Below, one piece after another: positions 4,488 through 61,974 of a DNA stretch of 64,000 bases; position 1 is the stretch's first letter, and each line of letters starts with the position of its first letter. A program made the position numbers and the translations under genes. The notes below the pieces were generated by a model, which was not told the origin of the DNA, did no database searches, and saw nothing but the letters and a program-made list of their open reading frames with translations. The stretch comes from a phage, in sequence record OZ346187.1; one strand, 5' to 3'.

Positions 4488-7400
4488 ATGAGTATGTGGA
4501 ATTTTGACTTTGAGGCCTCAGGTCTTCTGGACGAGGAAGATCTTTACTACCATTGTGGCCTGTTTAAAGAGTTGAATAAAAATAATTTTATGTTGTTTTT
4601 GCCTATCAATGATAGATCTCATTACAGTGAAGAGGAGGTTGAAAAAGCAAAACAATTTATGCTGGCAAAGCAAGATATCTATCCTAGCTGCTCTGTCCGT
4701 ATTGCGGATTTCAGCCAGCTTGAATGGTGGTTAACCGGGAACTCCGATTGGTCACCCACATCATTAAGTTGTCACAACTGTTTTAGTTATGACTTTATCT
4801 TGATGGAGAAGCTGTCTGGTATTCATTTTGATATGTTCCGTGATCCCAAGTGTATGGGGACAATCAATAATCATCAGGTGAACCTGTTCGACACTCTGCC
4901 AATGAGTCGTATACTATGGCCCGACAGACCGTTACCTAAAGGATGCCCTGATTCTGTATACAATCCTGTTACAAAACGTATGCAGCAGGTAGGTCCTCAT
5001 GGCCTAATGGCGTGGGGGTACGCTTTAGGAAACCAGAAGGTTAAAATTGATGACTGGAGAAATTTACCTCTGTGGAAGTATGTTGATCGTGTATTCGAGG
5101 ACGTTATCATCCAGGAGCTGCTCTGGAAAGAGCTGGTAGCGGAATCAAAAGGTGTATTCTACGGCAAATCTGACATGCAGAACTTTATGTACGATCCAGC
5201 CAAAGAGAAGCCGAAAGGGTTCAAGAAGATTACCTGGAAGAATGCATTACGCCGAGGCATGCTGCAGCACTTCCTGATGGAGCTGCAGGCCCGTCAGGGT
5301 GTATACTTCGACATAGATGGAGCTATTGCTTTACGTGACCGTTGCGATGCGTGGATGAAAGAAATCGCTGATCGTGTTGAACCACAACTACCTTTAAAAG
5401 AGCTGTCAATGTCTCAGCGGCCCAAGTTCCCTGAAAAGCCGTTTAACCAAGACGGGACAATCTCTAATAATGGTTGGAAATGGTTAAAAGATAAGCTTGG
5501 CTATCCTGTAGACATGAGTGCTTTAGAGTTCAAAGCCCCGCCTAAGCGAGCATTTACCTCTACAGGAGATGTCAGCAAGATGGGGATAAAATGGTGTGAA
5601 GAGATGGGCTGCAAAGACCCCGATAAGATGGCTGATTTCTTGAGAGGCTATATTAAGGGCACCTCCACACCACAACCCTTACCTAAAGAGCTGATGGATC
5701 AGGCAATAAGTGATCTGCAGCAGAAGCGAATGCCTGACTGCAAGATACCTATGAAAATCAGCAATCAGGACGACATCAAGCGATACCTAATCAGTGCTGG
5801 TTGGCTCCCAACAATGTGGAGAACTAAAGATGTAACTAAAGACAGCAAGAAGAAAGCTTTACCTGATGCAGATGTTGATGCACGAGTATATGCATATATG
5901 GACGAGCTTTTGGAGTCAGAGTATTGTGACCTAATTATCAACTTCTGGAACAAAACTGATGCTAAGTTCCAGACAACCGTGCACAAGTTCCGAAGCTTTC
6001 CTAACTCCGAAAGGATTAAAAAGGAAGTATTCGGGAAAATACGTAGAAAAGCCAGGGCACTTATTACTTCTCCGCAACTGAAAGATACGTTTGGACACCT
6101 ATGCCCAAATCTTGAAAAATTGAACGGAGAGATGGCTAAAGATATCGTCTTGTGGTTATCATTGCGAAACCGCAGATCGGTCCTTGATCCAATCAAGGAG
6201 GATAAGGTTGATACTGGTCTTCTTAATCACCCACGTTTGAAGATTGACCATAAGCTTCCTGCTAAAAGCTCTGGATTAACAAACACTTCCAGACAGAAAC
6301 ACAGTATTTGTGCAAACATGCCTAAACCATCTCCTAAAGTGGTTATGGGTAAAGAGATGCGTAGTCTGTGGGGTGTTCCTCCGGGATACTTTGAGATCGG
6401 TATTGACGGGTCCAACTTAGAGCAGCTTATCGGGGCTTGGGGTGCCTTTGAGTTCGACAACGGCCTGTATTATGATGTTGTAAGTAATGGCGATGCACAC
6501 TGTTATTCAGGAGATACACAAATTCTCACGGAGAAAGGGTGGGTGAGGTTTGAAGATCTTGATCCGGGAACACAAGTGTTCCAGTACGATCACAACACCT
6601 CGTCAATGAACCTTGTTACTCCATTAAATTACGTTAAGCGTAGTTATTGTGGGGATATGTATCATTTCCACAACAGTAGTGTGGATTTTATGGTTACAGA
6701 TCAACACAGGATGCTGACTGTGGATCACAGAAGCAATAAATTGTTTGAAGATTTGGCAAAAGACCTGAAAGCAGGTAAAGGGTCTAATTCAGGAAGAAGG
6801 TTTATCCATGCGGCAGAGTTTTATGGGAATACAACCTTATCTCCTGCCCAGGTTAATTTGCTTATTGCTATTCACGATGATGGGCACTTGCATACAAATA
6901 AGGACGGCAGCATCGTGTGCAGGATTCAGGTCGGAAAGGGAAGAAAAGTTGCAACGCTTTTAGATACTTTTTCTGCTCTAAGCCTTAGTTATGTAGAGCA
7001 GAGCGGGAAAACCACAAAAGGGGGCTTACTGGCGAGAAGGTTCCAATTCCACGTTCCGTCCTGGGTATTTGAGTTTTTGGACAACAATAAGGATTTCACC
7101 TATAACCTGATGAACCTTGATAAAGAATCTAAAAACCTGTTTATAGCTTCTTTATCTAACTGGGACGGGTGGGTATCTTCCGAAGGTGGAAAGGTTGCTT
7201 ACTACTCCCAGGCCGAGTGCAGGAAGAAATCTGTAGAGGTGGTGTCTGCGCTGGCTACTCAGTGTGGTTTACGGAATAATACGGTGGCGATTCACAAAAA
7301 AGGTCGTGCCGTGCAGCACAGAATCACAATTGGTAGCAAACAGAGAGCAGGGTTGCTGACACTATCTAAAGAGTCTGTCGAGGTGAGCGGTTCTTTGGTT

Positions 7401-7880
7401 TATTGCGTTACCGTCCCTTCTGGAGCAATCATTGTGAGAAGGAATGGTAAAGTGGCAGTGTGCGGTAACTGTAATAACGCCAAAGCTTACTCTTCTGTAG
7501 CAGGCAAGGAGATTTCCCGTAACGATGGTAAACCTATCACGTATGGGGTTATGTATGGGGCACAAAAAGATAAAGTTGCAGATATGCTGGACATCTCCCC
7601 AGAGTTGGGACAAAGGGTAATCGATGCACTCTGGGATGCCAACCCAGGTCTTAAGGGGCGCAAAGAGGATCTGGAGAAATTCTGGGAAGCAACAGGTAAG
7701 AAGTTTATCTACTCTTTTGATGGTCATGCTATCTGGACCCGATCTAAACACTCTTTACTTAATGCATACCAACAAAATGGCGGTGCATCGTTGTGTGACT
7801 TAGTTGGAATACTCATGCACCACCAGATGGTGAAGCGTGGGTGGTACGATGAAGGTGTTCGTCGTATTATTTATTACCAT
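4488..7880 (+). CDS. DNA polymerase, family A (T7 gp5-like), exon 1, containing an intein
   Basis: N-terminal FDFEASGL...YHCG exonuclease motif; motif A-like IDGSNLEQL; motif B-like RNDGKPITYGVMYGAQ; ORF stop at 7884-7886 is assigned to the intron. Confidence 0.8.
6501..7469 (+). mobile_element. intein with LAGLIDADG-type homing endonuclease, in-frame between polymerase motifs A and B
   Basis: Starts CYSGDTQILTEKG (intein block A); two LAGLIDADG-like motifs (LLIAIHDDGHL, FIASLSNWDGWV); ends ...VAVCGN followed by Cys at 7470; 969 nt, frame preserved. Confidence 0.65.
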
Positions 7881-8132
7881 AAATAACATTGTGGCTTCAT
7901 AGAGTAATCTATGTCGAATAACCTCTTTAACTGCGGGAAGCCTAAACCTTATGGCAAGGTAATCCGCAACGAAGCGCTCAAAAGAGCGAACGCTCAGAGG
8001 CCATTCCGAAAGGAAGTAGACCAGCAAGTGCGGTCGAAATGGGAGGATTCCTGTGGTTGCTTATCATAGGAATATGAGATGGTCCGATCCTACGTGAAAA
8101 CGTATGGCTATGCACGTAATGGTGCGGGGTAG
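7881..8132 (+). mobile_element. ORF-less group I intron in the DNA polymerase gene
   Basis: P-like CTGCGGGAAGCC and Q-like AATCCGCAACG elements; exon ends in U (7880) that can pair with GUGG 11 nt downstream (P1); ACGU-GAAA-ACGU hairpin near 3' end; last nt G (8132); joining 7880 to 8133 keeps frame. Confidence 0.55.
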
Positions 8133-8510
8133 CTTAACGACCTACCTGAACTATTGGATGAGTACCAACTTCAAGTGCCTGACACACCGAAGTATAAGAC
8201 TGTGTACACCTTCGACACAATTGAAGAACTGGAAGCATTTAAGGCAGAGCAGGAAGCCAAACTTCATGTGTTCGACGGTCATAAGTACAAAAAGGCACGC
8301 AAGGATGAGGACGGAAACGAAGTGGTTGACAGAGACGGAAACACGGTGTACGATCCTATCCTGAACGATGACGGAAAGCTTGAACTTATCTGGAGCCCTG
8401 TGGGTGAAATGGTGGTACATTGCTTCTGGCAAGCTTCTAAAATGATGGGAGTCCCGTTCCAGATCACAGGTGAATACTTGTGTGGTCGTAATTGGGGTGA
8501 TTGTCACTAA
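8133..8510 (+). CDS. DNA polymerase, family A, exon 2 (C-terminal)
   Basis: Frame open from 8133; C-terminus ...CGRNWGDCH resembles the Pol I-family terminus (GENWDQAH-like). Confidence 0.55.
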   Translation, partial: LNDLPELLDEYQLQVPDTPKYKTVYTFDTIEELEAFKAEQEAKLHVFDGHKYKKARKDEDGNEVVDRDGNTVYDPILNDDGKLELIWSPVGEMVVHCFWQASKMMGVPFQITGEYLCGRNWGDCH

Positions 8511-34505: not shown

Positions 34506-35768
34506 TCAGCAACTACAACTTCCATAGTGCTTAACTCGCTCGATAACTTCCGCTTGCTTACCTTTATTGTAAGGACGGGAGTTAGGACTGGAAAGGTATC
34601 CAGACACACGTCGAATTACACTGATCGTTCCCTCTTCATGGTTTCCACACTCTGGGCATACAAAGCCTTTAGCTGTTGCACTGAACTCACCAGAGAAACC
34701 ACACTTGAGACATTTATCCACAGGTTGGTTAATACCAAAATACATAATATGTTTATACCCGAAGTCAACAAGAGCCTCTAAAGCATCCAGGTTGTTTTTC
34801 AGGTTAGGTGTCTCTACGTATCCAATGTTGCCACCAGAGGAGATCATAGCAAAACCTTCCTCATACTCCCACTTATCAAAAGGAGAGCTATTTATCCACA
34901 CTGGCTGATGGAAACTGTTGGTGAGATATTCATGCTCGTGCTTTAACACTTCTGGATATTCACGATCCAGACAGGTTGCAGCTTTATAGCATAGACTCTC
35001 AGAAGGAGTGCCGTACAAGCTAAATGCTAGTCTACTTTCCTTCTTGTATCGCTCACAAGCATCTCTCATGTGCTGAAGGATTCCAAGAGCTAAAGCCTTG
35101 TCACCTTCTCTGCCCAAAATCTGACAGGTTTCATACACACCAATATACCCAATACTGATGGAAGCGTACCCGTCATAGAAGAGTTTATCAATACTTTCTT
35201 CGGGATCCAGGCGAGCAAGAGCGCCTTCACACCACATGATGGGGTTCTGCCCTGCCTTTGTTCCTTTTAGACGGTTAACCCTTACAAGGTGAGCCTCGTA
35301 TGCAAGATCCAAGTATTCGTCAAGAACTGCAAAGAAATCAACACATTCCGTCTTAGCTTTTGCCGCAATCATTGGCAGGTTAAGGCTAACAACACCCAAG
35401 TTGAATCTGCCGAGGTATTTCTCCTCACCTGTTTCCAAGTCATTGTATTTGCTAAGAAAACTCCGGCAACCCATACTCGTTACTTTGCCATCTGTCGAGC
35501 CTGTCACTTTACGATTTAGTGGAACAGAAACAAAGTCAGGATAAATCCGCTCTGCAGAGCATTCCAGAGCTAATCGTTTCAAATCATAGTTAGGATCTCC
35601 GGGGTTCATGTTGACACCCTCTTCTAGGAAGAACAGCACTTTAGGGAACACAGGTGTGATACGTTCTTCACCAAGACCCATTTTGTGGACTTTCAAGTAA
35701 TTTTTGGTAATCATTCTACCAAAGACCGAGGTATCCAGTCCTAAACTTAATGTGATGAATGGAGTCTG
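34506..35768 (-). CDS. nrdD: anaerobic ribonucleotide reductase NrdD, exon 2
   Basis: Frame is open upstream of the ATG to 35768; starts QTPFITLSLG...; C-terminal glycyl-radical-like RRVSGYL and Cys pairs. Confidence 0.7.
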   Translation of the reverse strand, partial: QTPFITLSLGLDTSVFGRMITKNYLKVHKMGLGEERITPVFPKVLFFLEEGVNMNPGDPNYDLKRLALECSAERIYPDFVSVPLNRKVTGSTDGKVTSMGCRSFLSKYNDLETGEEKYLGRFNLGVVSLNLPMIAAKAKTECVDFFAVLDEYLDLAYEAHLVRVNRLKGTKAGQNPIMWCEGALARLDPEESIDKLFYDGYASISIGYIGVYETCQILGREGDKALALGILQHMRDACERYKKESRLAFSLYGTPSESLCYKAATCLDREYPEVLKHEHEYLTNSFHQPVWINSSPFDKWEYEEGFAMISSGGNIGYVETPNLKNNLDALEALVDFGYKHIMYFGINQPVDKCLKCGFSGEFSATAKGFVCPECGNHEEGTISVIRRVSGYLSSPNSRPYNKGKQAEVIERVKHYGSCSC

Positions 35769-36565
35769 CTGTCTCCTCCCTGTGTTTCCACAGGGCCAGA
35801 CTATCTATTACTCTACTTCAATAAGATAATAACCCTTTATTGTGAGATGCTTACCTTCGGCATTTCCTTCGATAGCCCTGTGAACGTTACCTACGTTCAA
35901 ATTTAAGGCTTTTGCACAGGCGTAGAGTGAAGGATATTCACCCACCAAGATTTTCCCTTTGTATGCCTGCACTTTCCTATAGCACTTACCTGGACAAAGT
36001 CCTGTTCGGAAAGCATGTCTCTTATTATCTTCCGGCAAAACCCACTCTAGGTTAGACGGATGATCATTCAATGTATTGCCATCTTTATGATTCACTTCCC
36101 AGTTTTCAGGGTCTTCTGGGACATCTGGCAAACAATACAAGGCAACAACCCTTGAGGTTTGGATTCGAATCTTTTTACCTTTGTGGTTGAAAGAGTACAT
36201 ATAACGGCGTTTAACATGCTTATTACCTTTTCCATAACCTCCCCACAATATTGGGTGCAGCATTCCACGTTTTCCGTATACGTTTCCAACTTCATCAATC
36301 ACATAGTTTGATTCTTCACCATTAAGAATGATCTTTTTCATAGAGCCTCTCCATTTCGAAGTTAGTATTTCAACTAACCCCTACACTACTTGGTTCAGAA
36401 ATGTTTGTCAAGCATCTCTGCCTTTCGTTAGTCGTTACAACCGTTCCAACTCCTGTAAGAACTAGTCACGGGATTGGCATAGCTTTCGCCTTAGCGTTCC
36501 CCGTTAGCCGGATTTACCGACCCCTCTTATGAGGTTAGGAGAGTTTTACAACGGCCAGTTTGTTA
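35769..36565 (-). mobile_element. group I intron in nrdD carrying an HNH homing endonuclease gene
   Basis: On minus-strand RNA the exon 1 end AACGGU pairs with GCCGUU 8-13 nt into the intron (P1, U.G at the splice site); Q-like AAUCCGGCU, R-like GUUGUAACGACUAAC, S-like AUAGAUAGUCU overlapping the HEG stop; CCCUGUGG-AAAC-ACAGGG hairpin; intron ends in G; splicing gives ...SVNG|QTPF... in frame. Confidence 0.7.
35808..36341 (-). CDS. HNH homing endonuclease (intron-encoded)
   Basis: NHKDGNTLNDHPSNLEW HNH motif; 177 aa; lies inside the nrdD intron. Confidence 0.7.
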   Translation of the reverse strand: MKKIILNGEESNYVIDEVGNVYGKRGMLHPILWGGYGKGNKHVKRRYMYSFNHKGKKIRIQTSRVVALYCLPDVPEDPENWEVNHKDGNTLNDHPSNLEWVLPEDNKRHAFRTGLCPGKCYRKVQAYKGKILVGEYPSLYACAKALNLNVGNVHRAIEGNAEGKHLTIKGYYLIEVE

Positions 36566-37426
36566 ACCGTTGACAGAAGTTAACGTATTGATTTGATAGA
36601 GCAAAGTCTGCATGCTGTCAAATACGTCTTTATCTGTCATTTGCATTGCAACAGTCTCAGCATCTGGCAACCAATGTTCCTGGCAAAATTTAAGGTTCTT
36701 CTCATAAGTCGCCTCAGCATACTGTGCCAAATAATGGTCAATATGGCTCATAGTCTGACCCCCATATTGAGCACTAGCTACTGCACTAGAGATTTGGCTA
36801 AGGATTGTTGTTGCAACCCCTATTGACTTCGGCTTACTGACATGGGCGTTACCAATGTTGAATCCGTTTTCCAACATATCTGGATAATTTACCAAACAAC
36901 AGTTTGTTAACGGACTGATCAAGTAGTCAAGATCATGCACATGGATGAAGCCTTTATTGTGCTCTTCTGAGACACGGTCTGGCAGGATCTGTGTTGATGC
37001 AAGGTGTTTGCTAAGGATGCCTGCAAGCAGGTCACGATGAGTGTGTACATGATTGGTAGGCTTATTTGCGTTTTCTTTTGTAAATTCATCACAAGTTCGA
37101 TCCAAGAAGCCACTAATATCTGCAAGCAGTTTTCCACCTGCCTCTCTGTTATTATCTCTTGTCTGTCTATACTGGATGTATTCTCTGGCTGCACATTTTA
37201 AACCCATATCCATAAGAGCATCTTCAACAAGGATATGGATATTTTTTACAGAGATCGTGCACTGGTCGGTTGGTAGATTGTTAGCAACAACTTCATTAAC
37301 CGCACAAGCGATCCGGTAAGCTTCTTCTTCAGTATGTCCAGACTCAAGTAAGGCGGACTCTGCCGCCTTGATCACCTTAATTCCGTTATAGACCTCTTCT
37401 CTACCGTCCCGTTTTACAACTTTCAC
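36566..37426 (-). CDS. nrdD: anaerobic ribonucleotide reductase NrdD, exon 1 (ATP-cone, N-terminal)
   Basis: N-terminal ATP-cone-like MKVVKRDGREEVYNGIKV; ends ...SVNG at the proposed 5' splice site; ORF stop 36563-36565 is intronic. Confidence 0.7.
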
Positions 37427-37701
37427 TTTTTCTCTCCAAAACCATTCTTAACAAAAGAGATGAAATCGTCGGCACCGCCTATATGGACACTTTCAAGATT
37501 GCTTTCTAAGAAGATCTGCGGCAACGTTCTGGGGACAATTGGACTACACTTCTCAATAAGCTCTTCTTTTGTGTAGCCCTCGCCAAGTGTCTTATATACA
37601 AAAGGCAGACCTTTGCTGATTGCAAATTCTTTTGCTCTGACACAGTGTGGGCAGTTATCCTTACCGTAAATGATGATGAAAAAAGATTTTTCGCAGCTCA
37701 T
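37423..37701 (-). CDS. glutaredoxin-like protein
   Basis: CPHC active-site motif in IYGKDNCPHCVRAKEF; 92 aa. Confidence 0.65.
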   Translation of the reverse strand: MSCEKSFFIIIYGKDNCPHCVRAKEFAISKGLPFVYKTLGEGYTKEELIEKCSPIVPRTLPQIFLESNLESVHIGGADDFISFVKNGFGEKK

Positions 37702-61103: not shown

Positions 61104-61162
61104 TGTAAACATGGTCTCCCACCTTTTCTGGCGGCTAAGGTGTAAAAGAAAGCCACCCAGTG

Positions 61163-61237
61163 CCCTGTTAGCTTAGTGGATAAAGCAGCGGCCTTCTAAG
61201 CCGTTGACACTGGTTCGAGTCCAGTACGGGGTGCCAA
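61163..61237 (+). tRNA. tRNA-Arg (anticodon TCT)
   Basis: Hand-folded cloverleaf: acceptor GCCCTGT/ACGGGGT (with G.U pairs), anticodon loop CTTCTAA, T-loop GGTTCGAGTCC, CCA encoded. Confidence 0.65.
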
Positions 61238-61241
61238 ATTG

Positions 61242-61327
61242 GGGAGTTATCCCGTAGAGGTAGCGGTGTAGACTGTAAATCTATTGTCATTGCGACTCGG
61301 GTGGTTCGACTCCACCACTCCCCACCA
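61242..61327 (+). tRNA. tRNA-Tyr (anticodon GTA), long variable arm
   Basis: Acceptor GGGGAGT/ACTCCCC, anticodon loop CTGTAAA, T-arm GGTGG-TTCGACT-CCACC, CCA encoded. Confidence 0.65.
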
Positions 61328-61441
61328 AATTTATATTTTTAGATGCATAAATAATACAGATAATGGCATTGATATTTATCGTCGTTTATACTAGTCACTA
61401 ACTGCTCGAAAATCAGTGTCATTATCAGTATAATTTATAAA

Positions 61442-61532
61442 GGAGGGTAGGGAGCAATGGTGCTCAAGCGGTCTTGAAAACCGTCCCGTTGAGGATGACT
61501 CGATGATGGTTCGATTCCATTACTCTCCGCCA
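61442..61532 (+). tRNA. tRNA-Ser (anticodon TGA), long variable arm
   Basis: Acceptor GGAGGGT/ACTCTCC, D-stem GAGC/GCTC, anticodon loop CTTGAAA, T-loop GGTTCGATTCC, CCA encoded. Confidence 0.6.
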
Positions 61533-61630
61533 CATTGTTGACCTTGTAATTAAGCGAAAGCCGGAAGCAGAACCGGATTATCAAATGTTACAGTCGTCAT
61601 CGCCGACTAGCAACATGGTCAACATACTGA

Positions 61631-61729
61631 GCTAGGTAAGCCCTTTGGCAAGGGCGAGGATTTTTAATCCTGAAAATAGACGAGGTAGTCGTTGAATACA
61701 TAGGTGGTTCGATTCCATCACCTAGCACC
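61631..61729 (+). tRNA. atypical tRNA-like gene (~99 nt), anticodon ambiguous (most consistent with TTT)
   Basis: Perfect 7-bp acceptor GCTAGGT/ACCTAGC, D-arm GCCC-TTTGGCAA-GGGC, T-arm GGTGG-TTCGATT-CCATC; anticodon stem imperfect with loop TTTTTAA; ~29-nt extra region before the T-arm; 3' end ACC then T (CCA not fully encoded). Confidence 0.35.
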
Positions 61730-61734
61730 TTTTT

Positions 61735-61810
61735 GCTGATGTAGCACAATCGGTAGTGCAATTGATTTGTAATCAATAGGTTGTAGGTTCAAGTCCTGCC
61801 ATCAGCACCA
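61735..61810 (+). tRNA. tRNA-Thr (anticodon TGT)
   Basis: Acceptor GCTGATG/CATCAGC, D-arm GCAC-AATCGGTA-GTGC, anticodon stem ATTGA/TCAAT with loop TTTGTAA, CCA encoded. Confidence 0.7.
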
Positions 61811-61811
61811 A

Positions 61812-61886
61812 GGCCCTGTAGCTGGAAGGTTCAAGCAAGCGACTCATAATCGCCAGACGGTGGTTCAATTCCACCCAGGGCCACCA
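61812..61886 (+). tRNA. tRNA-Met (anticodon CAT; initiator, elongator or Ile-lysidine type not resolved)
   Basis: Acceptor GGCCCTG/CAGGGCC, anticodon loop CTCATAA, T-arm GGTGG-TTCAATT-CCACC, CCA encoded. Confidence 0.65.
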
Positions 61887-61897
61887 AATAGTAAATA

Positions 61898-61974
61898 CTC
61901 CGCGTAGCTCAGCTTGGTAGAGCGCCTGATTTGGGATCAGGAGGTCGAGTGTTCGAATCACTCCGTGGAGACCA
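61898..61974 (+). tRNA. tRNA-Pro (anticodon TGG)
   Basis: Acceptor CTCCGCG/CGTGGAG, D-arm GCTC-AGCTTGGTA-GAGC, anticodon stem CCTGA/TCAGG with loop TTTGGGA, T-arm GAGTG-TTCGAAT-CACTC, CCA encoded. Confidence 0.7.

Follow-up and report, generated by a model that had tools for sequence, protein, structure and literature searches.

Is a phage nrdD gene that is interrupted by an endonuclease gene read as two polypeptides or, after RNA splicing, as one? This question is raised by a 64,000-nucleotide (nt) stretch of phage DNA from sequence record OZ346187.1 (the whole stretch is called the window here), in which the anaerobic ribonucleotide reductase (RNR) gene nrdD, on the minus strand, is interrupted by 797 nt that carry an HNH-type open reading frame (ORF). 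We conclude that the interrupting segment, 35769-36565, is very probably a mobile, self-splicing-type group I intron of subgroup IA2 in a Vequintavirus nrdD. An earlier note, made from the letters of the window alone, had placed a group I intron here.

The splice junction in nrdD

The 1.5 kb around the insert is 94-99% identical to ~28 Escherichia phages of Vequintavirus (rV5-like myoviruses). The upstream ORF of the ORF list, 36563..37426(-), ends ...SVNG and then TAA (the 3′ end of exon 1 is GUC AAC GGU, with UAA directly after), and the frame upstream of ORF 34506..35714(-) is open from 35768 and reads QTPFITLSLG. Both ends are thus as the earlier note had read them. The gene is split between Gly287 (GGU) and Gln288, and the insert opens with the in-frame UAA and closes with G (35769). 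Deletion of 35769-36565 gave an in-frame reading frame of 2124 nt, in agreement with the proposed SVNG-QTPF join and terminal intron G.

The nrdD gene of phage rV5 is intact and of the same length as this virtually spliced frame. The spliced product of 707 amino acids (aa) is 99% identical to rV5 gp108 over residues 1-707, and the exon 1 product to its residues 1-287. The virtual junction matched the intron-less nrdD of rV5 and of ~78 other records as a single ungapped piece, and the predicted spliced proteins were exactly equal to the deposited joined proteins QXV82698.1 and QXV75731.1 (phages MaxBurger and AlexBoehm). Alignment of the joined protein to homologs, which the earlier note had named as a check, showed it to be collinear with rV5 gp108 and aligned without a gap across the junction to the solved T4 NrdD (1h78, E 1e-50). 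In Pfam searches exon 1 matched an ATP-cone and NRDD profile positions 1-154, and exon 2 matched positions 156-562 and Gly_radical; the exon products therefore abut in the family model. With ATP-cone, NRDD and glycyl-radical domains all matched, the host gene is a class III NrdD.

From the DNA the insertion point can be fixed only to within 1 base, because the last G of the intron is also the third-position G of the Gly codon in intron-less alleles. The intron-less Vequintavirus alleles read AACGGG^CAAAC (6/6 sampled; ^ marks the boundary), and the intron-bearing alleles all read AACGGU. In the alternative reading the insertion lies one base earlier and the exon is unchanged. With either reading the spliced mRNA has GGU vs. 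GGG in the intron-less phages, a synonymous difference. The rules for group I introns, U at −1 and a 3′-terminal G, pick the junction GGU^...G^CAG: the U.G pair at the splice site needs U at exon −1, and the terminal intron G was kept in all 8-10 copies while the preceding bases varied.

RNA anatomy and covariation of the intron

All core helices were located intact in the window copy (P3-P8, P4-P6, the P7 pseudoknot and J8/7; Table 1). The earlier note had claimed a P1 pairing with U.G at the splice site, Q/R/S-like core elements and an internal HNH ORF whose stop overlaps S. Each of these was found again: P1 is CAACGGU/GCCGUUG (7 bp), P/Q is ACGGGG/UCCCGU, R is GUUGUAACGACUAAC and S is AGAUAGUCUGG; the ORF occupies the P8 loop, P8 is closed by the U of the UAA stop, and J8/7, the 5′ portion of classical S (AAUAGAUAGUC), starts with the AA. 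The intron is of the group I, subgroup IA2 type. P7.1 and P7.2 lie between P7 and P3′, with AGUAGUGUA immediately before P7.2, and GUA-linked P7.1/P7.2 hairpins in this position are the criterion for subgroup IA2 (PMC3428280).

Covariation was analyzed in 7-10 copies (7 complete variants and several partial ones), all in nrdD at the same codon boundary. The variants were aligned with MAFFT, with 12 and 14 nt of flanking exon included and the ORF interior removed, and pairs were counted. RNAalifold, unguided, recovered P1, the long-range P3, P4, P5/P5a, P6, P7.2, P8, P9 and the helix of the 3′ tail. P7 forms a pseudoknot that RNAalifold is unable to draw, and was added for the pair counts. Standard pairs made up 93.4% of the cells, compared with 34-49% when the partners were slid by 1-3 columns, and 27 pairs were changed on both sides, compared with 3-8 in the slid controls; the observed values were reached by 0/500 shuffles, in a set whose sequences are related and from which the structure itself was derived. 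Two rows are partly misaligned (the 3′ half of AlexBoehm and exon 1 of L024), which lowers the pair counts rather than raising them.

Compensatory changes were seen in P1, P3, P6, P7.2, P8, P9 and P9.0. In P1 the pair of exon −7 with intron 17 is C-G (4 times), A-U, U-A or U.G, and the U.G pair at the splice site is invariant in the 7 variants. The guide strand followed synonymous exon changes in Val, Thr and Ala codons. P3 occurs as CUCUCC/GGAGAG, CUCUGC/GCAGGG, CUCUGC/GCAGAG, CCUUCC/GGAAGG and CUCUUC/GGAGAG, and four of the five pairs of P6 were changed on both sides. P8 has six complementary versions (GCUCUAU/GUAGAGU, AACUUAU/GUAAGUU, AAUCUAU/AUAGAUU, AAUUUAU/AUAAAUU, AUUCCAU/GUGGAAU and AAUCAAC/GUUGAUU), and P9.0 has five (UG/CA, GG/CC, GU/AU, AU/AU and AA/UU). 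P7 and J8/7 are invariant, hence they carry no covariation evidence. The claim that a group I intron splits nrdD is thus borne out by a full core that covaries in diverged copies, whereas splicing itself is inferred. Taken with the Pfam collinearity of the exons and the match of the virtual junction, this goes well beyond chance. In five variants P4 (36468-36504) is closed by a G.U pair, for which L007 and L022 have A/C, with both sides changed; this is an isosteric wobble replacement, not a Watson-Crick pair.

Two other pairings were tried and rejected. The P3 placement of Rfam (CGCUG.C/G.CAGGG, beside P4) does not hold for the window variant, and the 5′ strand that it uses is part of a hairpin that covaries separately. 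An RNAalifold hairpin, GGUUG-UAA-CGACU, is invariant and competes with P7.

Table 1. Positions of the nrdD exons, the intron and its structural elements in the window.
Feature	Position	Strand	Remarks
Group I intron, 797 nt, IA2-type	35769..36565	(-)	Intron-less alleles, P1/omegaG rules, covariation, weak RF00028 fragments
nrdD exon 1: ATP-cone and N-terminal part of NRDD	36566..37426	(-)	ORF list, Pfam; last codon GGU
P1 5′ strand, exon CAACGGU, U at splice site	36566..36572	(-)	Paired 7/7 in all 7 variants
L1 with in-frame UAA	36556-36565	(-)	
P1 3′ strand/internal guide GCCGUUG	36549..36555	(-)	
P3 5′ strand CUCUCC	36538..36543	(-)	Long-range helix found by RNAalifold
Two extra hairpins, CCUC-AUAA-GAGG and GUCGG-UAAAU-CCGGC	36507..36534	(-)	Both covary
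P4-P5-P6 domain	36443..36504	(-)	P4 ACGGGG/UCCCGU; P5/P5a with GAAA loop; P6 GUUCUUAC/GUUGGAAC
P7 5′ strand GACUA, inside R GUUGUAACGACUAAC	36429..36433	(-)	Invariant in all copies
P7.1 hairpin	36396..36420	(-)	Loop has invariant TTGACA (36406-36411)
P7.2 hairpin	36358..36381	(-)	GUA linker before it; 7/9 pairs changed on both sides
P3 3′ strand GGAGAG	36347..36352	(-)	Shine-Dalgarno sequence of the HNH ORF
P8 5′ strand GCUCUAU	36340..36346	(-)	Final two bases are AU of the HNH start codon (36339-36341)
HNH homing-endonuclease ORF (predicted), 177 aa	35808..36341	(-)	P8 loop; Pfam HNH_3
P8 3′ strand GUAGAGU	35810..35816	(-)	Last two HNH sense codons and U of stop
J8/7 (AAUAGA) and P7 3′ strand (UAGUC), classical S	35799..35809	(-)	Invariant; high posterior probability vs. 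RF00028
J7/9 UGG	35796-35798	(-)	Its UG and the CA before the terminal G form P9.0
P9 CCCUGUG-GAAA-CACAGGG	35778-35795	(-)	All 7 pairs form in every variant; 4 of them changed on both sides
3′ tail AGGAGACAG	35769..35777	(-)	Terminal guanosine is the last G (35769); exon 2 pairs with GGAG
Exon 2 +5..+8, CUCC	35761..35764	(-)	Pairs with intron tail
nrdD exon 2: remaining NRDD and glycyl-radical domain, starts QTPF	34506..35768	(-)	Pfam, tblastn vs. relatives

The P3 5′ strand is separated from J3/4-P4 by two covarying hairpins, where the T4 nrdD intron has no more than UAAA. At the other end, the intron tail and exon 2 (+5..+8) form a helix of 4-5 bp. This helix tracks exon codon choice (GGAG/CUCC, GGGG/CCCC, GGGC/GCCC, GGCG/CGCC and, in L045, GGCUG/CAGCC), and as judged from these sequences it may present the 3′ splice site.

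The hairpin layout is also seen in phage introns of IMG/VR (L027, L030 and L031), which share the P4-P5 motif and reside in other host genes. The motif, GCTAACGGGRAAMGCTAAG, is common to 26 viral contigs (among L027-L054, from IMG/VR and metagenome-assembled genomes (MAGs)). Only three of these, L028, L045 and L050, have nrdD introns at this site; in the rest other genes are interrupted and the hairpin lead-in before P4 is alike. The motif is present in five contigs from bacterial genomes or MAGs as well, with intron-like flanks only in L053 and L054, and L055-L057 look like chance matches. The unannotated record of Bacillus phage S4-2 (L006) holds an intron at 1448-2160 whose P4-P5 segment is nearly identical and whose own HNH ORF follows P6 instead of lying in P8; the host gene encodes a DnaE-like polymerase with a PHP domain. 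Two hairpins are present there too, and P3 could not be placed with confidence. No name for helices between P3 and P4 was found in the searchable literature, which is no proof of novelty.

We tentatively suggest that the nrdD intron and the introns with this P4-P5 motif may form a distinct IA2 variant. Such a variant would have two J3/4 helices, and its 3′ exon would be held, without a normal P10, by a covarying tail/exon-2 hairpin whose loop contains the terminal G and the splice site. In addition, the HNH protein may be made from an intron-internal promoter, on transcripts that would lack the P3 5′ strand and so leave the Shine-Dalgarno sequence free. If functional, the tail/exon-2 helix and the J3/4 insertion would be of interest to RNA structural biologists.

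The HNH reading frame, intron distribution and known relatives

The HNH ORF encodes a predicted I-HmuI-like HNH endonuclease. It matched Pfam HNH_3 with 29.5 bits (5.9e-7; cut-off 24.8), and I-HmuI (PDB 1u3e) aligned to its residues 8-160 (E 1.8e-4). The pattern NH..GN...P.NLEW....N..H is invariant in seven homologues of 52-88% identity, all with intact ORFs. A large protein collection yielded only 11 HNH relatives, and an HNH protein search of IMG/VR yielded none. All homologues for which contigs were fetched (P0001-P0004, P0007 and P0008; 51-88% identity) lie at the NG^Q boundary of nrdD, and the host NrdD proteins of the metagenomic phages that carry them are 38-85% identical. P0009 (40% identity) was considered as a further intron ORF and was not used; it is a free-standing HNH gene in a different context.

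The 3′ strand of P3 doubles as the Shine-Dalgarno sequence (GGAGAG) of the ORF, whose AUG falls within P8, so that HNH translation and ribozyme folding should exclude each other. The P7.1 loop has TTGACA 17-18 nt before TAnnnT in all HNH-bearing variants, though the stem of P7.1 varies in sequence, and TTGACA is absent from the AlexBoehm-type ORF-less form. A scan for sigma-70 consensus promoters over 35600-37600 called no promoter, and TTGACA-N17-TAGTGT is thus proposed as a candidate internal promoter only.

The distribution of the intron was analyzed in ~120 records that match the exon junction region at ≥90% identity. The HNH form was present in 28, an ORF-less 257-nt form in 14 (AlexBoehm, bov10K2 and 12 other records, in each case between the same GGU and CAA codons), and ~78 were intron-less. 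Presence/absence polymorphism at one precise site, together with an optional ORF, is the criterion applied here for a mobile (homing) intron. In the IMG/VR contig L050 the HNH-type intron has an ORF-less twin, with P8 closed by a GGG loop. The intron-less Avunavirus 18-1-2 and the intron-bearing L009 match in 83/90 flanking exon nt, GGT at −1 included, as would be expected for a donor/recipient pair.

The following course of events is proposed. In the pre-mRNA, P1 (CAACGGU with GCCGUUG), P3-P9 and P7.1/P7.2 would fold. By homology with studied phage introns, which use the standard two-step group I chemistry, free guanosine would attack after the U of GGU. The terminal G (35769) would dock in P7, aided by the 2-bp P9.0, a short P10 (CAG/CUG) and the family-specific tail/exon-2 helix, and exon ligation would yield ...SVNG-QTPF... 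and the 707-aa NrdD. In unspliced RNA the intron begins with UAA in frame, which would halt ribosomes at the splice site. The HNH enzyme, judging from its family and the site-specific distribution, most likely nicks or cuts intron-less nrdD near the insertion site, and recombinational repair during co-infection would copy the intron. Homing of this kind would explain why some of the near-identical phages have the intron and others lack it.

The T4 nrdD (sunY) intron resides in the same gene and the same conserved protein segment (YE-Y-EVNTLFSSNG-QTPF). Its IA2-type core is alike, with P7.1/P7.2 and no P2 before P3, and so are a nearly identical P7 (GACUA(U)/(A)UAGUC), the lead-in GUAAAA-P3-UAA, the P4 flanks AAC...CAAUCC, the GAAAC before P3′ and a stop codon at or near the intron 5′ end. 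In contrast, the T4 site lies 32 nt (11 codons) upstream of the window site, its enzyme is the GIY-YIG protein I-TevII encoded 3′ of P9 rather than an HNH protein in L8, and its J3/4 is only 4 nt long where the window intron has two hairpins. The T4 intron is 1033 nt long, compared with 797 nt here. Blastn gave no T4 match to the window intron, and global alignment with the T4 nrdD core showed blockwise similarity only.

In two relatives nrdD is interrupted at about residue 165, by an intron with a different HNH ORF of 206 aa in L007 (978-1969) and by an ORF-less one in L009 (1574-1892), and L009, L010 and L045 have a further interruption at residue 387/388. Counting the T4 site, phage nrdD has at least four intron sites. 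The window site is a second, independent group I site, 32 nt from the classic T4 one. Together with the sites at ~165 and 387/388 it adds weight to the idea that homing elements repeatedly target the best-conserved parts of RNR genes.

The DNA-polymerase introns of the Bacillus phages SPO1 and SP82, which encode I-HmuI and I-HmuII, are also phage group I introns with an N-terminal-HNH enzyme of ~175 aa. They differ in host gene and host phylum, and the protein similarity to the window ORF, which is closest to I-HmuI of SPO1, is distant. I-HmuI is reported to nick the template strand 3 nt downstream of the insertion site, in intron-plus DNA too (PMC3428280).

Alternative explanations, annotation and other features of the window

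If the HNH gene had simply been inserted in nrdD, without splicing, two NrdD polypeptides would have to assemble post-translationally. Most Vequintavirus records in GenBank are annotated in this sense, with two anaerobic ribonucleoside-triphosphate reductase coding sequences (CDSs) flanking a gene for an HNH homing endonuclease or a 'hypothetical' protein; exon 1 does end in a stop, and an ATG lies inside exon 2, 18 codons from its start. A precedent is nrdA of Aeromonas phage Aeh1, an RNR gene likewise interrupted by an HNH endonuclease gene, mobE, and in the cited passages described as having no intron and no splicing (PMC7344957; PMC3653736). The window ORF, in contrast, is enclosed by a complete ribozyme core: the ~260 non-coding nt around it form the full set of group I elements, with compensatory changes. 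An insertion of the endonuclease alone cannot account for the 257-nt ORF-less copies at the site, the guide sequence tracks synonymous exon changes, and the open, conserved frame of exon 2 extends past its first start codon right to the junction. We therefore regard the two-polypeptide explanation as very improbable. No higher is our estimate for a former group I intron that no longer splices and has left nrdD a pseudogene in its carriers. The Rfam score is under threshold and P10 is weak, and nrdD is probably dispensable in aerobic laboratory culture, all of which would fit such decay. The core helices of the window copy are all intact, however, and its P1, P9, P9.0 and tail pairs are all standard. 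The exons are 99% identical to intact nrdD with zero frameshifts, and the changes are compensatory, not random, across lineages whose exon proteins differ by up to 60%. An intein and a group II intron were also considered and rejected: the insert opens with an in-frame stop, does not make a single open frame with the exons, and contains a group I core.

More plausible, if still unlikely, is an intron that splices but whose HNH ORF does not act in homing, being inactive or having a maturase-like or phage-exclusion role, so that the patchiness would reflect loss. Enzymes of the I-HmuI type cut intron-containing DNA and act in phage-phage competition (PMC3428280), ORF-less introns persist, and all six sampled intron-less Vequintavirus alleles have G, not T, at exon −1, which could be a resistant site. 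The catalytic motif, however, is invariant and the ORFs are intact across 52-88% identity, the ORF is always at one nrdD site, and the exon match of 18-1-2 and L009 fits a donor and a recipient.

Several observations weigh against a mobile, self-splicing group I intron. P10 is only 1-3 bp, the hairpins between P3 and P4 are outside the textbook group I layout, and the covariation set is small, with several close relatives among its variants. A NUMOD-like DNA-binding module of the HNH protein (PF22083) scored 18.4 bits, under the cut-off of 27, even though the I-HmuI alignment still runs through residue 160. The searchable sources hold no demonstration of splicing, nicking or homing for this intron. 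At the gathering score of Rfam RF00028 (50 bits), no hit was obtained at the nrdD locus of the window or of its ORF-less relatives. A permissive search gave 23.3 bits, in fragments, for the window copy, in which the ORF splits the core, and 29.8 bits (full length, E 5.9e-6) for the ORF-less AlexBoehm intron. The low score is a limit of the model, since RF00028 expects P3 directly before P4, which is disallowed in this intron family, and since a second group I intron of the same window (7871-8106(+), ORF-less, ~236 nt) scored 64.7 bits, above threshold.

Pipelines based on Rfam miss this intron family, and the sub-threshold score may be behind the two-fragment NrdD annotation of most records. 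The BASEL records (MaxBurger MZ501093, AlexBoehm MZ501048 and others) already annotate nrdD as a two-piece join, with the CDS starting at an ATG 213 nt downstream of the exon 1 GTG used here. Intron boundaries were set there by comparative genomics, and the paper describes neither this intron nor its RNA structure or subgroup and contains no splicing test (PMC8594841). The rV5 genome paper reports introns in the terminase gene only, rV5-like phages go unmentioned in a survey of split phage RNR genes, and no paper describing this intron was found in the searchable literature. The intron is thus already annotated but uncharacterised, and as a kind of element it is ordinary for a phage RNR gene. 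Exact join coordinates would allow correct annotation of nrdD in Vequintavirus genomes, including those of phage-therapy and biocontrol candidates. Variants with the intron and ORF, with the intron alone and without the intron occur in near-isogenic, easily grown Escherichia coli phages (BASEL), which offer material for work on homing, co-conversion and splicing.

On the minus strand of the window the genes run in the order nrdB, glutaredoxin, nrdD exon 1, insert, nrdD exon 2, a small ORF and nrdG. The second intron splits a DNA polymerase gene near its 3′ end (ORFs 4488-7886 and 8104-8364). Within the genus it is absent from MaxBurger, ORF-less here and in MaxTheCat, and carries an HNH ORF in Mangalyan, Phage 206 and SophiaRose. 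Residues 672-706 of the 1132-aa polymerase ORF 4488-7886(+) gave a weak Hint match (E 8.8e-4, below cut-off), which hints at an intein or an intein remnant. About 16-23 MG0656xx records, labelled UNVERIFIED and filed under Vequintavirus as 'Campylobacter phage C2, C7, D1 ...', share 96-99% identity with E. coli Vequintaviruses in both nrdD and the polymerase gene, and their Campylobacter host label looks doubtful. Six transfer RNA genes, two of them barely over threshold, are clustered at 61162-61971(+).

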